The position numbers and the translations under genes were made by a program. Under the pieces are notes generated by a model. That model was given only the letters and a program-made list of their open reading frames with translations, searched no databases and was not told the origin of the DNA. Source: a virus. From it: a stretch of 64,000 nucleotides of DNA. Location of the stretch: the IMG/VR virus record IMGVR_UViG_3300005613_000004; one strand, 5' to 3'. Shown one piece after another: positions 6,239 through 56,837 of this stretch (positions are counted from its first letter, which is position 1; the number at the start of each line of letters is the position of its first letter).

Positions 6239-8532
6239 GTAACGGAACAAAAGTCATTAAGAGAAATGGAAATGATGAACTGCTTGATTTAAATAAATTG
6301 CATGTAATGGTAGAAGAAGCATGTAAAGATCTATCTGGTGTTTCTGCATCACAAGTTGAAATGCAATCTGGTATTCAATTCTATGACGGTATTACCACAG
6401 CAGAGATTCAGGAGATTTTAATTCGTTCTGCATCAGATTTGATTGATTTAGACCATCCAAACTATCAATACGTTGCTGCAAGGTTACTTTTATTTGCTCT
6501 TCGCAAAAAACTTTATGGACGTATGCATGAAAATCCAAAAGTAAAAACTCATGTTCAAAATTGTGTTGATATGGGTGTATATGACTCAGAAATTCTGAAC
6601 ATGTATACTGACGAAGAATTTGAAAAACTGGATTCATACATTGATCATAGTCGTGATTACTTATTCACCTATGCAGGATTACGTCAAGTTTGTGATAAAT
6701 ATCTTGTTCAGGATAGGAGCATCGGAAAGATATATGAAACTCCCCAGTTCATGTATTTGTTGATTGCAGCAACCATTTTTTCTAGGTATCCTAAAGAAAC
6801 ACGTCTCGATTACGTAAAAAAGTATTATGACGCAATCTCAAAACACAAAATCAACATTCCCACACCTATCATGGCAGGGGTTAGAACTCCACTTCGACAA
6901 TATGCTAGCTGTGTTCTTGTTGATGTTGATGACTCCCTCGATAGCATCTTTAGTTCTGATATGGCTATCGGCAGATATGTTGCACAAAGGGCGGGAATCG
7001 GTATCAATGCAGGTAGAATCCGCGGCATCAACAGTAAGATCAGAGGTGGAGAAGTTCAGCATACAGGCGTTATTCCGTTTCTCAAAAAGTTTGAGTCAAC
7101 TGTCAGATGTTGCACTCAAAACGGCATACGAGGTGGAAGCGCAACAGTACACTTCCCAATCTGGCACCAAGAAATAGAAGATATTTTAGTTCTTAAAAAT
7201 AATAAAGGAACAGAAGATAATAGAGTACGTAAACTAGATTACTCCATTCAAATGAGTAAATTGTTTTATGAACGATTCATCAACAATGAACATATTACAC
7301 TCTTCAGTCCACATGACGTTCCTGGTCTGTATGATGCTTTTGGTACTGATGGATTTGATGATTTATACAGAGCTTATGAGGGTGATCCAGATATTCCTCA
7401 AAAGGCAATTGGTGCTCAAGAACTTATAATGAGTCTCTTGAAAGAAAGAGCAGAGACTGGTAGAATCTATATTATGAATATTGATCACTGCAATTCTCAC
7501 TCATCCTTTATGGATAAGATTGAGATGAGCAACCTTTGTCAAGAGATCACTCTACCCACCAAACCTTTACAACATATTGATAGTACTGATGGTGAAATTG
7601 CTCTTTGTATTCTTAGTGCTATCAATATTGGTAAAATTAAAGATCTTGAAGATCTTCAGATTCTTTGCGATCTTGCTGTTAGGGGTCTTGATGAACTCAT
7701 TGATTTTCAGCAATATCCCATCAAGGCAGCAGAAATTGCCACAAAAGCACGTAGATCCCTCGGAATCGGTTATATTGGACTCGCACATTATCTTGCAAAG
7801 AATGGACTCTCCTACGACGATCCTGGAGCATGGAAATCGATTCATGACTTGACCGAAGCATTTCAATATTATTTGATCAAATCGACTGTCAATCTTGCAA
7901 GAGAAAAAGGTGCTTGTGAATACAGTGATCGTACTAAGTATAGTCGGGGAATTCTTCCGATTGATACATATAAGAAGGATGTGGATGAAATTGTGCCAAA
8001 TGTTCTTCACTGTAATTGGGAGAAACTTAGAGCACAAGCTAAGCAGTATGGAGTTAGAAATTCAACATTGTCAGCACAAATGCCTTCGGAGAGTAGCTCC
8101 GTTGTATCAAATGCAACTAATGGAATTGAACCTCCTAGAGGATTCCTTTCGATTAAAAAATCGAAACAAGGACCTCTTAAGCAAATTGTTCCGCAGTATA
8201 ATTCACTAAAGAACAATTATACTTTATTGTGGGATATGCCCTCTAATAGGGGATACATCAATATTGTTGCAGTAATGCAAAAATTCTTTGATCAGGCAAT
8301 ATCTGGAAATTGGAGTTATAATCCAAAACATTATTCAAACAATGAGATTCCTGTGTCTATAATGGCACAAGATCTTTTAACTACATATAAGTATGGTTGG
8401 AAAACCAGTTATTATCAAAATACATATGACATTAAGACTGATGAAGTAGAAGAACCTACCGAATCACTTGATACATTAATTAATCAATTAGAAGTAGCAG
8501 AGGAGGAAGATTGTGAGTCTTGTAAGATTTAA
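6235..8532 (+). CDS. nrdA: ribonucleotide reductase class I alpha subunit (start likely ATG 6235)
   Basis: ATP-cone VIKRNG, PTPIMAG, ASCVL, SNLCQEI, LSAQMPSESSS, C-terminal CESCKI. Confidence 0.98.
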   Translation: MSNGTKVIKRNGNDELLDLNKLHVMVEEACKDLSGVSASQVEMQSGIQFYDGITTAEIQEILIRSASDLIDLDHPNYQYVAARLLLFALRKKLYGRMHENPKVKTHVQNCVDMGVYDSEILNMYTDEEFEKLDSYIDHSRDYLFTYAGLRQVCDKYLVQDRSIGKIYETPQFMYLLIAATIFSRYPKETRLDYVKKYYDAISKHKINIPTPIMAGVRTPLRQYASCVLVDVDDSLDSIFSSDMAIGRYVAQRAGIGINAGRIRGINSKIRGGEVQHTGVIPFLKKFESTVRCCTQNGIRGGSATVHFPIWHQEIEDILVLKNNKGTEDNRVRKLDYSIQMSKLFYERFINNEHITLFSPHDVPGLYDAFGTDGFDDLYRAYEGDPDIPQKAIGAQELIMSLLKERAETGRIYIMNIDHCNSHSSFMDKIEMSNLCQEITLPTKPLQHIDSTDGEIALCILSAINIGKIKDLEDLQILCDLAVRGLDELIDFQQYPIKAAEIATKARRSLGIGYIGLAHYLAKNGLSYDDPGAWKSIHDLTEAFQYYLIKSTVNLAREKGACEYSDRTKYSRGILPIDTYKKDVDEIVPNVLHCNWEKLRAQAKQYGVRNSTLSAQMPSESSSVVSNATNGIEPPRGFLSIKKSKQGPLKQIVPQYNSLKNNYTLLWDMPSNRGYINIVAVMQKFFDQAISGNWSYNPKHYSNNEIPVSIMAQDLLTTYKYGWKTSYYQNTYDIKTDEVEEPTESLDTLINQLEVAEEEDCESCKI

Positions 8533-46562: not shown

Positions 46563-46604
46563 ATCAACAGGTTAAGGAATGTAAACATTTCTAATCTTTT
46601 GCAA

Positions 46605-46712
46605 ACACCCCTTCAACCGAGACCTATAGGGTGTATAAATCACGTCTCTCATACCTCTGTCTGAGGGTGGCAGAGGAATAGTAAAACCACCATCTCCCTG
46701 ATGGTCTTACTT
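46605..46712 (+). ncRNA. PhotoRC-II-like structured psbA leader RNA
   Basis: Stems accc/gggt, gagac/gtctc, cctctgtc/ggcagagg, accatc/gatggt in the psbA 5'UTR, the known context of this motif. Confidence 0.75.
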
Positions 46713-46726
46713 TCTTTTAAATTAAA

Positions 46727-48068
<1,342 letters not shown>

Positions 48069-48183: not shown

Positions 48184-48444
48184 ATGCCATCAGAAGAAAC
48201 AGATTTTAATCTCGATCGTTGCTTAGATTCGACAGGGCATAGTGAAGATTTAGTTCGTAGACTTGTTGCTGAGAATGTTCATAGTGAAAAAATTCACAAA
48301 ACAATTACATCTAATACTGAACATATGAAAATTATTCTTGCAAAGCAACAAGTAATTGATTCTGGTTCACCAAGAATTGCTGAATTTCAGGAAGCAGTGC
48401 AACTTGGAGAGGCATTTGTTCAGGTTGAAATTCCAGCAGAATGA
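48184..48444 (+). CDS. late hypothetical protein
   Basis: ATAAATA at ~48120; ORF track. Confidence 0.65.
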   Translation: MPSEETDFNLDRCLDSTGHSEDLVRRLVAENVHSEKIHKTITSNTEHMKIILAKQQVIDSGSPRIAEFQEAVQLGEAFVQVEIPAE

Positions 48445-48491
48445 TTTAACCTGCTGAATTTATTTTGTAATATTAGTTAAATAAAAATAAT

Positions 48492-48519
48492 CAAAAGAGA
48501 GACCTTCGGGTCTCTTTTT
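48492..48519 (+). terminator. rho-independent terminator (copy 2), followed by TATAAT
   Basis: Identical 28 nt to 48089-48116. Confidence 0.9.
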
Positions 48520-48529
48520 TTATGTTATA

Positions 48530-49179
48530 ATGACTTTAGTTCAAACAAACATTATGTCTTCTGGCATCACAAATCTATCTGTCCGTGTAGAGCATTCCGA
48601 TGGTCATGCTTACACCCTTACAAAAAACTTTCACGGTGTCACTCTTTATTATATACATGATACTGATTCCGAAAAGATTGACACAGAAGTATTCATCCCA
48701 CAGAGTTCTGTAACAGCTATTACACACGCCTTGAACCTCATCTCTCAAGACCCTGAATACTAAACCCTCTTTTTTTATGACAAGAATTCGAGACCCACTG
48801 AAGTATGGATACTATGGTGTTGATTATGTGCTCTGGGGTAAAGACAGAGTTGCCGTTCATTTTGACCTTGTATCCGCACAACAGGCAATGATGTCAATGA
48901 TTAAACGTGGAGTTGAAGTCAAAGGATTAAGATCTATTGGAATTGATGACTAAAAAGAAAAGTGCCTGGAGAATCTGGGCAAAAGCAATAGGAGCAAAGG
49001 ATGGAAAAAATGATCGAGAAGCAGATATTATTGCTGGCATACGCACCATTATATTGCTTGCTTACATGGTCACTAATGTGGCTATCGTGGCCAATGCAAT
49101 AAGGCACTGGAATAATGTTAACTACATAGAACAGATGAAATTAAACAATGAAAATTTTTCTGGATACTGCCGAAGTTGA
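48530..49179 (+). CDS. three small hypothetical proteins (48530-48763, 48777-48953, ~48946-49179)
   Basis: ORF track plus manual reading; the last has WRIWAKAIG. Confidence 0.55.
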
Positions 49180-49804
49180 TGAAATTTCAAAGGCACATGA
49201 AACTGGATTGATTAATGGTGTCACGACAAATCCAACTTTAATTAAAAGAAGTGGACGTGATCCTGTAGAAGTAATTAAAGAAATCTCTTCTTCTTTTGGT
49301 AGTTTGGAATCAATCTCAGCAGAAGTTGTTGCTGATACTGCAGAAGAAATGATTGATCAGGCACAAGCATTTAATGGTTTATGGAATGTAACAATTAAAG
49401 TTCCTTGTACTGTTGAAGGTCTCAAAGCATGTACTGCACTTGCAATGAATCAATATAAGGTTAATGTGACTCTTGTATTTTCTGTTGCACAAGCAATCCT
49501 TGCTGAAAAAGCAGGTGCAACTTATGTTTCACCATTTGTTGGTCGTTGGATGGATAATGGTGTTGATGGTATTGAACTGATTCAAAACATTCGACGGGCA
49601 TATACTGGTAATGGTCAGTTCACAACGACTCAAATTCTCAGTGCATCATTGCGTGATGTAAGACAGGTAGAGCAATGTGCCTTGGCAGGTACTGATGTTG
49701 TAACGATTCCTTCTAAAGTATTTTGGGGAATGTATAAGAATGTATTGACTGATAAAGGTCTTGAGCAGTTTAATATGGATTACTTAGAAACAATTTTATC
49801 ATAG
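49148..49804 (+). CDS. talC: transaldolase (TalC/FSA family)
   Basis: MKIFLDTA, GVTTNPTLI, IKVP, NVTLVFS, YVSPFVGR, ASLR. Confidence 0.96.
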   Translation: MKIFLDTAEVDEISKAHETGLINGVTTNPTLIKRSGRDPVEVIKEISSSFGSLESISAEVVADTAEEMIDQAQAFNGLWNVTIKVPCTVEGLKACTALAMNQYKVNVTLVFSVAQAILAEKAGATYVSPFVGRWMDNGVDGIELIQNIRRAYTGNGQFTTTQILSASLRDVRQVEQCALAGTDVVTIPSKVFWGMYKNVLTDKGLEQFNMDYLETILS

Positions 49805-49881: not shown

Positions 49882-50952
49882 ATGAGTCTTTTGGCTTCTT
49901 CTACACTTTCACCACCAATTTTGCAAAGGGGATGGTTCGATGTCTTGGATGACTGGCTTAAACGCGATCGTTTTGTCTTTGTGGGTTGGTCTGGATTATT
50001 ACTTTTTCCCACTGCTTATCTTGCAATTGGTGGCTGGCTTACTGGTACAAGTTTCGTTACGTCGTGGTACACCCACGGACTCGCAACTAGCTATCTTGAG
50101 GGTGCTAATTTTCTTACAGCGGCTGTGTCAACGCCTGCTGATGTTATGGGTCATTCTCTTCTTCTACTTTGGGGTCCTGAGGCTCAGGGAGATTTCGTCA
50201 GGTGGTGTCAACTTGGAGGGCTTTGGGCCTTTGTTGCTCTCCATGGTGCCTTCGCCCTTATTGGGTTTATGCTTCGGCAGTTTGAGATTAGTCGTTTAGT
50301 AGGAATTAGACCGTACAATGCGATTGCTTTTTCAGGTCCTATTGCCGTATTTGTTAGTGTATTTCTCATCTACCCACTTGGACAATCCAGTTGGTTCTTT
50401 GCGCCATCGTTTGGCGTTGCGGCGATCTTTAGATTCCTTCTTTTCTTACAAGGTTTCCACAACTGGACACTCAACCCCTTTCATATGATGGGTGTTGCTG
50501 GTATACTTGGAGGGGCACTTCTTAGTGCAATTCATGGTGTTACAGTAGAGAATACATTGTATCAAGATGGTGAACAAGCAAACACTTTCAAAGCTTTTGA
50601 TAGCACCCAAGAAGAAGAAACTTATTCAATGGTTACTGCCAATCGTTTTTGGTCGCAAATTTTCGGTATTGCGTTTAGTAATAAGCGTTGGCTTCACTTT
50701 TTTATGCTGTTTGTTCCTGTTATGGGTCTCTGGACATCTTCAATCGGGATCATCGGACTCGCACTCAACCTTCGTGCATATGATTTTGTGAGTCAAGAGA
50801 TTCGTGCTGCTGAAGACGCTTCATACGAAACTTTCTACACGAAAAATATCTTGTTGAACAATGGCCTTCGTGAATGGATGATGACTATTGACCAACCACA
50901 TGAAAACTTTCCTGTAATTGAGGAAATACTTCCAAGAGGAAATGCTCTTTGA
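49882..50952 (+). CDS. psbD: photosystem II D2
   Basis: [35 protein letters not shown]. Confidence 0.98.
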
Positions 50953-50958
50953 TACTCA

Positions 50959-50979
50959 AGACCCTTCGGGGTCTTTTTT
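50959..50979 (+). terminator. psbD terminator
   Basis: agaccc-ttcg-gggtct-ttttt. Confidence 0.85.
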
Positions 50980-51007
50980 ATTTACATAAGACCCAGAGTA
51001 TGATATT

Positions 51008-51015
51008 ATATAAAT
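51008..51015 (+). promoter_or_regulatory. T4-type late promoter for the endonuclease
   Basis: TATAAATA. Confidence 0.75.
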
Positions 51016-51041
51016 AATAATAGTTATTCGTAGTTCGTATC

Positions 51042-51605
51042 GTGGCATTAAATAATAAATCAAAACCTTGTGGTGCTTTAGTTGGTGAGAAGTTTGGAAA
51101 ACTTACTGTTTTAAAAGAAGAAGTTATTTTAAAGAGTGGAAAAAACAGAGTATATGCAACTTGTAAATGTGAATGTGGTGGAGAAAAAACTTGTGACAGA
51201 AGTGGATTAACGACTGGAAGAACTACAAGTTGTGGGTGTGTTAGAAGAGAAACCACAATTACCTTCAATAAAACTAAAAAGAAACCAGAAGGTGAATTAA
51301 AAAGTGATGACCGAAGATATAAAATGTATCACAATGCTCAACACAGAGCAAAGAAAAAGGGAATACCATTTACAATTTCTATGGAAGATATTGTAATACC
51401 AGAAACTTGTCCTCTGCTTGGCATACCATTAGTATCTACAAATGATAAGAGAGACCCAAGAAATCCAAGTTTAGATCAAAAAGTTCCTGGTGAAGGATAC
51501 ACTCCCGATAATATTTGGGTTATATCTTCAAGAGCAAATGCTTTAAAGTGGGATGCCACCCTACAAGAACTCAAAACACTGGTAGAAAATCTGGAAGCCC
51601 TCTAA
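51042..51605 (+). CDS. free-standing HNH-type (beta-beta-alpha-Me) homing endonuclease
   Basis: N-terminal GEKFGKLTV...CKCECG...TTSCGC domain; CPLLG...PSLDQKVP..GY...NIWVISSRAN. Confidence 0.82.
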   Translation: MALNNKSKPCGALVGEKFGKLTVLKEEVILKSGKNRVYATCKCECGGEKTCDRSGLTTGRTTSCGCVRRETTITFNKTKKKPEGELKSDDRRYKMYHNAQHRAKKKGIPFTISMEDIVIPETCPLLGIPLVSTNDKRDPRNPSLDQKVPGEGYTPDNIWVISSRANALKWDATLQELKTLVENLEAL

Positions 51606-51737
51606 CCTTTAATAAGGATTTCTCTTATTAAAGGAAACCCACTAAACCTTTAATAAGACCACTTCCACAACCGTCACAGCACTCCTTTACAGGGGGTGCT
51701 TTTTTATTGTATAATATTAATGTAAGTAAAACACTTC

Positions 51738-52628
51738 ATGAAACTTTGGATGCTTGGTAATCGTCTCACTACTGAGATGTATGAACGTAACAGATTTGTA
51801 GAAGAAGCAGATAAATATGGTATTGATTTCTCAGTAGTTTTTGCTGACGAAATCGACTTAATCGTTTCCCAAGATGACCGCAAATCTATTCGATATCGTA
51901 ATGATATTCTCAGTCTCCCTGACTGTTTACTTGCTCGTACTGGGTCTGCTACTGGTTATTTTAACCTCAGTGTTCTCAGACAGTTTGAAAGACTGAATGT
52001 AATGACGATGCCAAACTCTGCTTCGATTGAGGCATCGAAGGATAAGATGTATGCTAACCAGATTATGGCACAAGCAGGACTTCCCATCCCAAAGACGATG
52101 CTGACAAGATTTCCTTGTAAAGCAGAGACTGTTCAGAAGCAAGTGGGATTTCCTTGTGTCCTAAAAGTGGTTACTGGTTCTCATGGTGCTGGTGTTTTCC
52201 TTTGTGAAGATGCTAAACAGTTTGAAGATTTGTCGGAACTTATTTCTTCTCTTGAATCAAAATCTTCTATGATTGTTCAGGAGTATGTAAAAGAATCGGA
52301 AGGAAGAGACCTTCGGGTCATTGTTATTGGTGGTAGAGTTGTTGGAGCAATGCAACGCAAGTCTACTGATGGTTCATTTAAAGCCAATATTTCCCGTGGA
52401 GGTAAAGGGGAAACATACGATGTTGATGACGAATTGGAAATGCTATCAATTCAAGTTGCAAAAGTTCTTGATCTTGATATTGCTGGTGTCGATCTATTAT
52501 TTTCTAGCGACGGATACCGAATCTGTGAAGCAAACTCAGCCCCAGGATTCCAAGGATTTGAGGAAGCACTAGGGATTAATATCCCTCAGAAAGTTTTTGA
52601 TTATGTTAAACTCAGATGTGGAGGGTGA
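51738..52628 (+). CDS. RimK-like ATP-grasp ligase
   Basis: SKDKMY, IPKT, VLKVVTGSHGAGV, QEYV..GRDLRV, FKANISRGG, AGVDLL, EANSAPGF. Confidence 0.9.
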   Translation: MKLWMLGNRLTTEMYERNRFVEEADKYGIDFSVVFADEIDLIVSQDDRKSIRYRNDILSLPDCLLARTGSATGYFNLSVLRQFERLNVMTMPNSASIEASKDKMYANQIMAQAGLPIPKTMLTRFPCKAETVQKQVGFPCVLKVVTGSHGAGVFLCEDAKQFEDLSELISSLESKSSMIVQEYVKESEGRDLRVIVIGGRVVGAMQRKSTDGSFKANISRGGKGETYDVDDELEMLSIQVAKVLDLDIAGVDLLFSSDGYRICEANSAPGFQGFEEALGINIPQKVFDYVKLRCGG

Positions 52629-52692
52629 ATAAGACCACTTCCACAACTGTCACAGCACTCCTTTACGGGGGTGCTTTTTTATTGTATAATAC

Positions 52693-53406
52693 ATGGGTAA
52701 AGCAATCGAGGCTGTGCCCATGCTACTTTCAGAATTCAAGCAAAAATTTTGTACTATCAAGGCAAGAGGATTTATTAAATCCCATCGCAAAGGTGATACT
52801 GGTGTGGGTCATACCCTTGAACAAGAACTGGGACTGACTGAGAATTGTATCTCTGGTCCTGATTTTGAGGACAATGAACTCAAAGGAGCACGTAAAGGTG
52901 CTGGTGGTAAGCAGACACTGTTCACCAAAGAGGGTGAGTGGGTTGTATCGCAGAAAGATTATATTGCACAATACGGTTTTCCTCACACCACAAAAATTGG
53001 TGAGATAAGTGGACAATCTACCGTCACCAAGACTGTTAACAACCGTGGTCTATCTATTGTGACCACTGATGATTACTGTACCGTTGTGCATGGTGATACT
53101 ATCATCGTTAAGTGGGATTGGGAGACACTAGTCAACCAGTTTGGTAAGAAGTTCCCTGCCTGTGTGAAAGTATTTGCCGATGTTGAAAAACGTGATGGTG
53201 TGGAATACTTCCATTATAATGAAGTGTATAGATATATTGGAACTGATAAAAATCTATTTCGTACTGCTATAGAGAATGATGTGATTGCCATTGATATTCG
53301 TATGCGTACACAGAACATGATTGGCAAATCTCTTCGTAATCGTGGTACTGCATTTCGTATAAATCATGGTAATATGGAAGAACTGTTTATTAAGGAGGAA
53401 CTTTGA
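52693..53406 (+). CDS. MvaI/BcnI-family restriction endonuclease (start possibly ATG 52720)
   Basis: GFIKSHRKGDTGVGHTLEQELGLTEN; PD-x4-ExK (PDFEDNELK); TLFTKE; NRGTAFRI. Confidence 0.82.
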   Translation: MGKAIEAVPMLLSEFKQKFCTIKARGFIKSHRKGDTGVGHTLEQELGLTENCISGPDFEDNELKGARKGAGGKQTLFTKEGEWVVSQKDYIAQYGFPHTTKIGEISGQSTVTKTVNNRGLSIVTTDDYCTVVHGDTIIVKWDWETLVNQFGKKFPACVKVFADVEKRDGVEYFHYNEVYRYIGTDKNLFRTAIENDVIAIDIRMRTQNMIGKSLRNRGTAFRINHGNMEELFIKEEL

Positions 53407-54308
53407 AAGACACAATTCTGTATGGAGACTGTAGAGAAACGTTGCAACAGTTTGCGGAGTCTGGTGTTCGTGCTCGTATGTGTGTGACATCTCCTCCTTA
53501 CTATGGATTGCGTGACTATGGTAATGAAGATGCACAGATAGGTCTAGAAGAATCGCCTGAAGAGTTTATTCAACAACTGGTTGAGGTGTTTCGTGGTGTG
53601 CGTGATTGTCTCACTGATGATGGTACATTATGGGTTAACATTGGTGATAGTTACTATAACTATCGTGGAGGAAAGGGTCAGGCATTACCAAAACAATCTG
53701 TTGCTAATACAAATCAAGATCTACCACAAGGAAAAAATCCTAGACGTGGTAATAAACTGAAAGGATATAAAGAGAAAGATCTTATCGGTATTCCTTGGAT
53801 GCTTGCATTTGCTTTACGTGCAGATGGATGGTACTTGAGACAAGATATTATTTGGAGTAAGCCCAATCCAATGCCAGAAAGTATGAAAGATAGGTGTACT
53901 AAATCTCATGAATACATATTCTTACTCAGTAAAAAGCAAAATTATTTTTTTGATGTTGAGAGTATAAAAGAACCTACTATTGATGGTAAATCATTGAAAA
54001 GAAAGAAGAGTGTTTGGAATATTCAAACAAAACCTTATAAGGGTGCTCACTTTGCAGTTTATCCTCCAGAACTTATTGAACCTGCTATTCTTGCTGGTAG
54101 TGAAGAGGGTGATATTATTCTTGATCCTTTTATGGGTTCTGGAACTACAGCAATGGTTTCTAAAAGTTTAGGTAGGCATTATATTGGGTGTGAACTTCAT
54201 AAAGAATATGGAGAACTAATTGATAATAGGATATCTGAATACAATAAAATATATACTGCAAAGGATAAAATAGTTGGTGAAGGTAAACTTATTTTTGAGG
54301 ATGAATAA
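53403..54308 (+). CDS. beta-class amino-DNA methyltransferase, probably N4-cytosine
   Basis: Motif IV TSPPY N-terminal, motif I DPFMGSGTT C-terminal; TTGA overlap with the REase. Confidence 0.92.
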   Translation: MKDTILYGDCRETLQQFAESGVRARMCVTSPPYYGLRDYGNEDAQIGLEESPEEFIQQLVEVFRGVRDCLTDDGTLWVNIGDSYYNYRGGKGQALPKQSVANTNQDLPQGKNPRRGNKLKGYKEKDLIGIPWMLAFALRADGWYLRQDIIWSKPNPMPESMKDRCTKSHEYIFLLSKKQNYFFDVESIKEPTIDGKSLKRKKSVWNIQTKPYKGAHFAVYPPELIEPAILAGSEEGDIILDPFMGSGTTAMVSKSLGRHYIGCELHKEYGELIDNRISEYNKIYTAKDKIVGEGKLIFEDE

Positions 54309-54385
54309 GACCACTTCCACAACTGTCACAGCACTCCTTTACGGGGGTGCTTTTTTATTGTATAATACTCTTATAGTCAATCAGA

Positions 54386-54673: not shown

Positions 54674-55156
54674 ATGAATTCACAAGAACTTCGTAACCTT
54701 CAAGAAGCATATTTAGAAGTTGTTGAAAATCAACAGCAACTTGATGAAGGATATGTAGAATTTGACAAAGATAGAGGACCTAGAAAACCATCGCCAAGAG
54801 GAAAGTTGGTAACGAAAGCCTCACAAAAAAGACTTGGCAATATTCTTTCTCCACATCATAGAGATGCAAAGAAACAAGGAGAAAGAGCTGAAAAAATGAG
54901 CTCGGTTAGGGATACTCATAGTCCAGAAAAAGCACAAGCAAAAGCAGCAGCAAATAAGGCAAAAGGTGAATCAAAGAAAAAGGCATTCGGCAATCGTTTA
55001 AGAAGATCGGACGGACAAGGTATTCAGGATAGTTATGATTATTACGACATCATCCTTTCACACCTTCTTGATGAAGGTTATGCTGAAACACCAGAAGCAG
55101 CAGAAGCAATTATGGTGAATATGAGTGAAGAGTGGAGAGATAGTATTATTGGTTGA
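54674..55156 (+). CDS. probable head-internal protein (cassette 4)
   Basis: MNSQELRNLQEAY..QLDE leader, basic core, DIILSHLLDEGYAETPEAAEAIMVNMSEEW tail. Confidence 0.65.
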   Translation: MNSQELRNLQEAYLEVVENQQQLDEGYVEFDKDRGPRKPSPRGKLVTKASQKRLGNILSPHHRDAKKQGERAEKMSSVRDTHSPEKAQAKAAANKAKGESKKKAFGNRLRRSDGQGIQDSYDYYDIILSHLLDEGYAETPEAAEAIMVNMSEEWRDSIIG

Positions 55157-55237
55157 TAACCACTTCCACAACTGTCACAGCACTCCTTTACGGGGGTGCT
55201 TTTTTATTGTATAATACTCTTATAGTCAATCAAACTA

Positions 55238-55773: not shown

Positions 55774-55898
55774 CCACTTCCATAACCGTCACAGCACTCC
55801 TTCGCATGGGTGCTTTTTTATGGTATAATGACTTCATATACATCAATCATCATGATCAAAGATTCTGCCCCATAATTAATAGTAAAATTATAAAAATT

Positions 55899-56837
55899 AT
55901 GAATCCAATTTATGAACACTTTAAGTCCAAAAACTGTGAAGTAAATTTTATTGATAAGAATATTTGGGAAATATCAAAAGGCAATTCTAAATTTTTGATA
56001 TATGTTCCATACTTGGTATGTGATCAGGACCCTTCACTTTCGAAGGAAATTACTGAATTTAAATCAAGAACAAATGCATACCTGAAACGTAATAATTATC
56101 CACATACTGAACAATTGTTTGTATCTAGAATTGAGGATTTGGATAATGCTTTAGATAAAATTGGATATCCTTGTGCTATAAAGCCAAATAATGAAAACAA
56201 TGGAAATGGGGTTTATTGTAATATAAAATCAAAACATCAATTAATGTTTCATATACACCAACAAAGTGCATATTTTTATCAAGATGGATTGATATTAGAG
56301 AAGCACGTTAGAGGTGATGATTATAGAATAACAGTCATTAATAATGAGTTCTTATTCGCAGTACAGCGAAAACCTCCATTGATTGTTGGTGATGGTAAAA
56401 AGACAATTATTGAATTAATTGATGATAAGAATGAAGAAATAGAAAAACTTAAAAATAAATTTAGTTTTTATAATAATATCATTGTCAATGATTCTGAGAT
56501 TAATTATAATTTGAGTTTAAATAATTTAACATTTGATTCTGTTCTTGATGTGGATCAAACATTTATATTGAAGAGTATTTCTAACTTAAGTGTTGGTGGA
56601 GAGAGAATATTTGTTCCTAGAGAAAAAATACATGAATCAGTTATTGATATGTGTGAATCTTTATCTAAAGATTTAAATTTATTTTCACTTGGGATTGATT
56701 ATATAACTGAAGATATTAGTAAAGAACCAGAACTGGGTAAAGATTCTATAATAGAATTAAATTACAACCCTCAAGTTTCTGGTGAGTATTATTTTAAATG
56801 TTTGGATATGATGCTTGAAAAGTATGAATGTAACTGA
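55899..56837 (+). CDS. ATP-grasp ligase resembling the cyanophycin-synthetase/GshF grasp domain (start likely ATG 55899)
   Basis: YPCAIKP..ENNGNGV, LEKHVRGDDYRITV, PPLIVGDGKKTIIELID, SNLSVGG, GIDYITEDIS, IIELNYNP; no Mur domain. Confidence 0.8.
   Translation: MNPIYEHFKSKNCEVNFIDKNIWEISKGNSKFLIYVPYLVCDQDPSLSKEITEFKSRTNAYLKRNNYPHTEQLFVSRIEDLDNALDKIGYPCAIKPNNENNGNGVYCNIKSKHQLMFHIHQQSAYFYQDGLILEKHVRGDDYRITVINNEFLFAVQRKPPLIVGDGKKTIIELIDDKNEEIEKLKNKFSFYNNIIVNDSEINYNLSLNNLTFDSVLDVDQTFILKSISNLSVGGERIFVPREKIHESVIDMCESLSKDLNLFSLGIDYITEDISKEPELGKDSIIELNYNPQVSGEYYFKCLDMMLEKYECN

Follow-up and report, generated by a model that had tools for sequence, protein, structure and literature searches.

The 64,000-nucleotide stretch of DNA analysed here (IMG/VR virus record IMGVR_UViG_3300005613_000004; hereafter the window) carries psbD, the gene for the photosystem II (PSII) protein D2, followed by an open reading frame (ORF) for a predicted nuclease of 187 amino acids (51042..51605, plus strand, GTG start, intact). 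This ORF is probably a free-standing homing endonuclease gene, a member of an undescribed clade strictly linked to psbD, which would spread by intronless homing with target-site immunity. What is observed is the position of the ORF, its presence behind some psbD alleles and absence behind others, its association with a changed D2 tail, a local excess of nonsynonymous divergence (dN), a synonymous signal, remnants of psbD at a junction and signs of purifying selection, in the nuclease as in the tail. From these we infer that the enzyme cuts, where it cuts, that the carrier is immune and which way conversion runs.

The psbD gene (49882..50952, plus strand, 356 amino acids) is intact according to the ORF list and its match to Pfam Photo_RC (2.3e-70), and its DNA is 80-85% identical to psbD from many Synechococcus phages. 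Upstream of the tail, D2 is as ordinary as the original prediction had called it (Photo_RC, 237 bits). Residue positions follow a 352-residue numbering, in which the start of the tail at 50812 is codon 307 and 50818 is codon 309. The final 46 codons occupy 50812-50949, ahead of the stop codon at 50950-50952, and translation of 50812-50952 returns the tail sequence that had been reported. Codons 307-346 (50812..50931, plus strand) are recoded, with 12 amino-acid substitutions relative to the consensus of 70 nuclease-less phage alleles (P309A, E310S, F311Y, E323N, A327E, A330M, P331T, V332I, V340P, F341V, P342I and V345I). The consensus comparison thus bears out the earlier statement that E312 and K317 are kept while P309, E310, F311, E323 and A327 are changed; E312 and K317 are unchanged in 123/123 alleles compared.

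The segment 307-346 is invariant from cyanobacteria through plants and the window allele is exceptional. An 18-residue core (codons 307-324) is identical across the solved D2 chains of a red alga, plants and other organisms, as expected from a consensus that had been described as near-invariant, and the variant tail motifs are absent from the representative cellular genomes searched. Among the alleles compared, no change at all is seen at E312, K317, N318, L320, L321, G324, R326, W328, D333, Q334, E344 and P347-L352, and varied replacements recur at the same few codons (F311Y/W, T316S/L, I319V/Q, E323N/D, E307S/Y/V and P309A/G/S/V).

These changes go with the nuclease. Alignment of 53 unique nuclease-linked with 70 nuclease-less alleles, a comparison that the original prediction had proposed, shows the core to be changed in 43/53 of the former and 1/70 of the latter (Fisher p = 3e-22), counts that are inflated by shared ancestry, as the nuclease and the tail are adjacent and the alleles are not independent. 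The mean number of tail differences is 4.75 vs 1.29, and the core dN is 0.156 vs 0.009, a 17-fold excess. In the gene body (codons 105-300), dN is 0.049 in nuclease-linked and 0.047 in nuclease-less alleles and synonymous divergence (dS) is 1.42 and 1.50, respectively. Since the groups match in body dN and dS, the samples are equally diverse, and sampling bias as the cause of the tail association is ruled out. Downstream of the nuclease-less alleles there are ordinary small phage ORFs; other nuclease types were looked for there and were not seen.

The variant tail is not found independently of the nuclease. In the single nuclease-less allele with a changed core (L020), the psbD stop is directly followed by the final 12 nt of the nuclease ORF (ctggaagccctcTAA) and by the flank that lies downstream of the nuclease (L020:2266-2345). 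This is a deletion scar, which shows that the phage lost the nuclease gene. A syntenic IMG/VR contig (L017) retains only the final 49 codons of a variant psbD, ~303-352, with the breakpoint at codon ~303. An unrelated ORF of 215 amino acids, whose start resembles window ORF 54674-55156, takes the place of the psbD body there (L017:5758-6570), and a small HNH-like ORF of another kind (6646-6921) comes next.

Part of the signal is synonymous. Codon 319 is ATT or ATC in 67/69 nuclease-less vs 12/50 linked alleles, with ATA in 24 of the linked ones, and codon 324 is GGC or GGG in 29/50 linked vs 2/69 nuclease-less alleles. Such nuclease-specific changes argue for selection at the DNA level, that is, escape from recognition, rather than for selection on D2 function. 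Nucleotides that are rare in nuclease-less alleles begin abruptly at codon 307 and extend to about codon 343, which points to the psbD tail, rather than a place elsewhere, as the target. The altered segment also goes with the type of the nuclease N-terminal domain: all 11 unique linked alleles with the N-domain type of the window are changed at codons 307-311, vs 0/5 and 0/3 for two other types. Members of the variant clade with a common 325-352 block differ by 4-6 synonymous and 0 nonsynonymous changes, indicating that the variant tail is maintained as a functional protein end. The synonymous signal suggests that escape at the DNA level lies behind the tail changes and that D2 keeps its function.

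A scan of IMG/VR with the family alignment detected at least 203 relatives of the nuclease, 80 of which were fetched. Their position is strict: in 76/76 fetched with upstream sequence, the relative lies 21-137 nt downstream of the psbD stop. The nuclease is present behind psbD in phage S-SKS1 and in 53 unique alleles, and the psbD 3' position is without it in S-RIM12, S-CAM9 and 70 IMG/VR alleles. In S-SKS1 the D2 tail differs from that of the window by one residue, and a 50%-identical homologue, SWZG_00023, stands directly after psbD; the family has diverged to 44% identity. More distant relatives (34-39% identity) are found at other loci, between gp45 and gp44 in ACG-2014f (L180:1648-2241) and, in other phages, next to DNA polymerase genes; L179:1786-2325 (RB11-B) is likewise such a relative at another locus. 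The interval between gp45 (sliding clamp) and gp44 (clamp loader) is a classic site of free-standing endonucleases, and a position beside varied conserved genes is typical of free-standing homing endonuclease families. Three loci (L167, L170 and L173) have nuclease forms of 125 amino acids that keep the catalytic half and are without the N-domain; these may be degenerating copies.

The borders of the nuclease-bearing cassette can be traced on both sides of the ORF. The ORF is outside any intron or intein, no intron signal was found between psbD and the ORF, and it has its own predicted terminator and promoter-like site. Just after the psbD stop, a terminator-like hairpin followed by a T run (50958..50975, plus strand; AAGACCCTTCGGGGTCTT + TTTTATTT) forms part of the cassette; S-RIM12 and S-CAM9 have no such hairpin in their psbD 3' flank. 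It is followed, upstream of the nuclease ORF, by a sigma-70-like promoter, TTTACA-17-TATTAT with TG (50981..51009, plus strand), a match to the consensus only. At the other end, the ORF terminates in GAA GCC CTC TAA (51594-51605), of which the last codons and stop, GCC CTC TAA (51597..51605, plus strand), are read as a remnant of the psbD end GCA CTC TAA; these 9 nt (3 codons) could match by chance if taken alone, and relatives have GCACTCTAA exactly. In L132/L014 the nuclease ORF terminates in 33 nt of standard psbD (EEVLPRGNAL*, 10 codons), and the terminator that comes next is like the one behind psbD in the nuclease-less L021.

The right junction of the cassette is marked by a unique 46-nt flank (51606..51651, plus strand), single-copy in the window, which directly follows the psbD stop in the nuclease-less S-RIM12 and S-CAM9. 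Next to it is a terminator-plus-promoter, PeSL-like repeat (51652..51715, plus strand) with further copies at 52621-52692, 54297-54368 and 55174-55215. This element of ~70 nt combines a terminator hairpin with a predicted TATAAT promoter and occurs in at least four copies within 4 kb. Outside the window it follows psbD or the nuclease in S-RIM12, S-CAM9, S-SKS1 and a number of IMG/VR contigs. The whole stretch downstream of the nuclease had been considered as the original psbD flank; this is ruled out, since its second half is the repeated element with four window copies, and the argument for an original flank is thereby confined to the unique 46 nt and the stop-proximal codons. The psbD-end remnants, together with the S-RIM12/S-CAM9 flank behind the nuclease, place the cassette within the psbD 3' end. 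As the sequence reads, the working psbD finishes with a tail that the cassette has supplied, and its former end now lies cut off downstream of the nuclease.

Of the "host" genes found in cyanophages, psbD and psbA are the classic examples, and their mosaic evolution has been put down to general recombination. The window psbD is mosaic along its full length, with the nearest relatives of its body shifting among different phages. Codons ~300-352 are nearest to L004, S-SKS1 and L017 (92-97% DNA identity), which are not the nearest relatives of the body. Within this segment, the 323-345 block (N323, E327, M330, T331, I332, P340, V341, I342 and I345) is common to S-SKS1-type cassettes and occurs in L016 with a standard 307-316 segment; the 309-311 patch is typical of the nuclease type of the window. 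The tail of the window is therefore most plausibly composed of several patches derived from different cassette lineages, and repeated conversion between competing nuclease variants probably produced the compound allele. One fixed variant tail carried along with the nuclease is ruled out, as tails are mosaic and near-identical nucleases have different ones.

The original prediction had called the nuclease an HNH endonuclease. The ORF matches PHROG 3322 "endonuclease" (1.4e-31) and PHROG 1035 "endonuclease VII" (3e-19), and its N-terminal part matches PHROG 374 "HNH endonuclease". The HNH label itself is only loosely apt, as the general-base histidine is missing; the motif is S-L-D-Q in the window (Q146) and S-L-D-K or S-L-D-R in relatives. 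Neither Pfam (E <= 0.01) nor NCBIfam assigned it to a family, PDB sequences searched with a profile contained no match at E <= 1, and Foldseek with the model found none at E <= 0.001. A place in the F-CphI / Endo VII family is ruled out, as the protein has neither the D-H...H...N motif nor a Pfam Endonuclease_7 match; PHROG 1035 is its sole link to that family.

An AlphaFold model of the nuclease, built from 12 relatives (predicted local distance difference test, pLDDT, 83), divides the protein into two domains. The N-terminal one (51057..51242, plus strand; residues 6-67, pLDDT 83) is a Tudor/CarD-like beta-barrel, with Tudor/CarD matches at Z about 5. C43, C45, C64 and C66 are invariant in the family alignment of this domain, and the modelled barrel is presumed to be a zinc-bound DNA-recognition module. 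It is swapped among family members, so that several N-domain types are joined to a near-constant catalytic half. The C-terminal domain (51285..51602, plus strand; residues 82-187) is modelled as a His-Me finger (beta-beta-alpha-metal) domain, with strands 142-146 and 158-162 and helix 163-171 arranged as in that fold. By fold it is most like PacI (3m7k, with Z 6.2 across 106 residues and a root-mean-square deviation of 6.3 Å), followed by the Gme HNH (Z 4.5) and McrA (Z 4.2). PacI was ranked first, at a modest Z, only by the wider VIA search; Foldseek gives PacI 3ldy a probability of 0.98, but an E of 0.07. According to the model, the protein is a histidine-less His-Me finger nearest in fold to PacI. 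D145, the loop residue Y153, N157 and N166 are invariant across the 12 aligned sequences; D145, N157 and N166 are candidates for the Asn/Asp metal ligands of the superfamily. PacI, an HNH restriction enzyme, is also without the general-base histidine, which is replaced by a loop tyrosine, and is active (PMC5714182).

In the proposed mechanism, which supposes a mixed infection, the nuclease would cut within codons ~303-343 of psbD in a phage that lacks the nuclease and has the standard tail. For the nuclease type of the window, the critical site would most likely be at codons 307-311; a site near codons 303-311 is suggested by the sharp left edge of the changes at 307, by the breakpoint of L017 at ~303 and by the fact that all alleles of this type are changed at 307-311. 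Repair of the break from the nuclease-bearing genome would copy the segment from the cut to the nuclease, the nuclease gene and the terminator and promoter of the cassette. The carrier allele would be shielded by the recoding of its tail at both amino-acid and synonymous sites. As the cassette is placed within the psbD 3' end, its arrival would provide a replacement tail and leave the original end fused to the nuclease ORF, with 3 codons in the window and 10 in L132.

Several observations weigh against this mechanism, and some of them favour a tail that is carried as a passenger and confers no immunity. The cut could be made elsewhere, at the junction near codon 343 or in the flank, or the cassette could move passively, and the tails would then be hitch-hiking donor sequence or the product of error-prone repair. 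The changed region of ~110 bp is broader than a single recognition site, the tail block and the gene body differ in their nearest relatives, and the junction remnants put the insertion at codon ~343. The nuclease of the window and that of L101 are 91% identical (dS 0.26), and their tails differ at 14 residues with only F311Y shared, so that near-identical nucleases travel with very different tails. In addition, 10/53 linked alleles retain the standard core; they belong mostly to distant nuclease types (e.g. L091), most of their nucleases lie 21-29 nt from psbD, and their changes, if any, are at codons 336-340. Shared ancestry, noted above for the association counts, also tells against the homing mechanism. 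A passenger tail is nevertheless unlikely. No donor lineage was found among nuclease-less phage alleles, solved D2 chains or representative cellular genomes, the varied substitutions come back at the same few codons, the changes at codons 319 and 324 are synonymous and nuclease-specific, and the segment that is altered follows the N-domain type.

Other points against homing concern the protein. The catalytic histidine is gone (Q146, with K or R in relatives) and the PacI fold match is modest, which makes nuclease activity uncertain. The ORF may then encode an inactive or domesticated protein, perhaps a DNA-binding regulator, with the cassette spread by recombination at the PeSL-like repeats and in conserved psbD. 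The lack of a Pfam or NCBIfam nuclease match fits this explanation, as do the four terminator-promoter copies in the window; the one at the right flank may offer the cassette a route for shuffling that is independent of the nuclease. PeSL-mediated shuffling is known in T4-type phages (PMC2839356). Purifying selection on the ORF (dN/dS, omega, 0.08-0.37 vs relatives) speaks for a maintained protein, although dS is saturated (1.3-1.7) and the omega figures are rough. The conservation of D145, Y153, N157 and N166 in a family diverged to 44% identity and the activity of the equally histidine-less PacI make an inactive protein quite improbable, and such a protein would leave unexplained why tail recoding is confined to ORF-bearing alleles. 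Adaptive tuning of PSII, in which the tail is selected for a donor-side or assembly property and the nuclease is a mere neighbour, draws on the lumenal position of the changes near the D1-E65/D2-E312 channel, where E323 is titratable (PMC12060903), and on the purifying selection that keeps the variant tail, but is very improbable given the strict link to the nuclease, the nuclease-specific synonymous changes, the many alternative substitutions with no single optimum and the functional residues E312 and K317, which are never altered.

If homing with target-site immunity is accepted, its consequences may reach beyond the DNA. Competition of several nucleases at one locus could amount to an arms race that forces changes at D2 lumenal residues which no other oxygenic phototroph varies (E307, P309-F311, T316, I319, E323 and 330-345), and infected cells would then build a PSII measurably altered in its donor side, its chloride or proton exit or the docking of extrinsic proteins. 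This extension is doubtful, though conceivable. An effect of the tail on PSII is possible because E323 is one of the titratable residues in the D1-E65/D2-E312 channel network (PMC12060903). Were it true, a selfish DNA element would be an engine of functional diversification in a core photosynthetic protein.

The scale of the phenomenon gives the homing interpretation its interest: at least 203 nuclease loci in IMG/VR are tied to one 150-bp stretch of psbD, and amino-acid change is raised 17-fold there, at residues that have otherwise stayed fixed since PSII arose. If cleavage does take place, the photosystem genes of cyanophages would have a second homing system, one shielded by a recoded exon rather than an intron. 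The alleles would then also represent a natural mutational scan of tolerant vs fixed lumenal D2 residues, and the enzyme would be a new endonuclease scaffold of the His-Me finger type, histidine-less and with recognition domains that can be swapped. Since both S-SKS1 and its host, WH7803, are in culture, the model is directly testable.

The phage of the window is a marine Synechococcus phage distant from isolates, the best match being S-SKS1 with 79% identity over 12% of a 20-kb query. Gene order around the cassette is psbA, split by a group I intron, small ORFs, talC (49148-49804), psbD, the 187-amino-acid ORF, a RimK-like ATP-grasp gene and an MvaI/BcnI-type restriction enzyme with a methylase. 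The psbA intron (47215-47517; Rfam RF00028, 90 bits, full length) is associated with ORFs 46727-47278 and 47433-48068, and a PhotoRC-II RNA motif (46593-46689; Rfam RF01717, 79 bits, full length) lies directly 5' of psbA. Those of the small ORFs after psbA (48184-49179) that were checked have no nuclease family match. In L017, psbA has no intron and is followed by a true Endonuclease_7 ORF (L017:4326-4748, Pfam 4e-23); the psbA intron of the window and this ORF could be the two halves of the "collaborative homing" pair of S-PM2, in separate genomes. Downstream, the MvaI/BcnI-type restriction endonuclease gene (52693-53406) and the gene for an N6/N4 DNA methylase (53403-54308) are flanked by 72-nt direct repeats, 99% identical, which are copies of the terminator-promoter element (52621-52692 and 54297-54368). 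The restriction-modification cassette looks as if it was inserted or shuffled at these elements. The RimK-like ATP-grasp gene is at 51738-52628 (Pfam RimK 1.7e-52), and a second, putative ATP-grasp gene, read from its sequence, is at 55806-56837; both are in the variable region.

Known systems resemble the psbD cassette in different respects. The PeSL cassettes of T4-type phages (PMC2839356, PMC4122927) likewise have a stem-loop and promoter of ~70 nt that is repeated in the variable region and borders inserted genes; in the window, these are the restriction-modification cassette and, on its right side, the nuclease cassette. The promoter in the window element is a predicted one, the PeSL paper makes no mention of cyanophages, and PeSL elements account for the shuffling of modules, not for the recoding of the psbD tail. 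As for the enzyme, the absence of a general-base histidine and a conserved tyrosine between the strands, for which Y153 is the candidate equivalent, are shared with PacI and His-Me finger group 20 (PMC5714182). Unlike PacI, the nuclease has no detectable sequence similarity to any PDB chain, and its modelled N-domain is a Tudor-like zinc barrel in place of the helix-turn-helix-like domain of PacI.

Among homing systems of phages, F-CphI of cyanophage S-PM2, described as a homing endonuclease with an Endo VII motif and with psbA as its target (PMC6083498, which cites Zeng et al. 2009), is similar in being a free-standing cyanophage nuclease beside a gene for the PSII core, and the nuclease of the window has a weak match to a PHROG labelled "endonuclease VII". 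F-CphI, however, has the Endo VII D-H...H...N motif and its carrier is protected by the psbA intron, whereas the nuclease of the window has neither that motif nor the histidine and its carrier is protected, it appears, by recoding of an exon. Intronless homing in T4-type phages is represented by SegF acting on gene 56, SegG acting on gene 32, and MobE (Belle et al. 2002 and Liu et al. 2003, as related in PMC3037559). Here too, a free-standing nuclease with its own expression signals stands by a conserved gene, occurs sporadically and goes with a locally divergent carrier allele, and by analogy the co-conversion of flanking markers would be expected. In contrast to the Seg and Mob systems, the target would be a photosynthesis gene, psbD, and the enzyme is neither GIY-YIG nor canonical HNH; the window cassette is inside the 3' end of the gene with a replacement coding end, at least 203 variants in IMG/VR share one locus, and homing is here a prediction.

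A literature search for a psbD-linked homing endonuclease found no published description. The closest parallel to the architecture of the cassette is provided by the fungal mitochondrial mORFs and their "gene hybrids", known from atp6 in Allomyces macrogynus and from atp6, atp9, cox2 and nad3 in Glomus (PMC3630166), in which an endonuclease ORF within the 3' end of an essential gene supplies a foreign C-terminus and the native one is found downstream, sometimes in-frame. The window fits in both respects, with the native psbD 3' end stranded behind the nuclease ORF and a replacement end that differs in ancestry from the gene body. It differs from the fungal cases in its phage setting, in a stranded end of 3-10 codons, in a nuclease that has its own predicted promoter and is not fused, and in the nuclease family. 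From all of these systems the window is set apart by the psbD target, by an undescribed family of apparently histidine-less enzymes, by a phage gene whose end has been replaced and by how large a radiation shares one locus.

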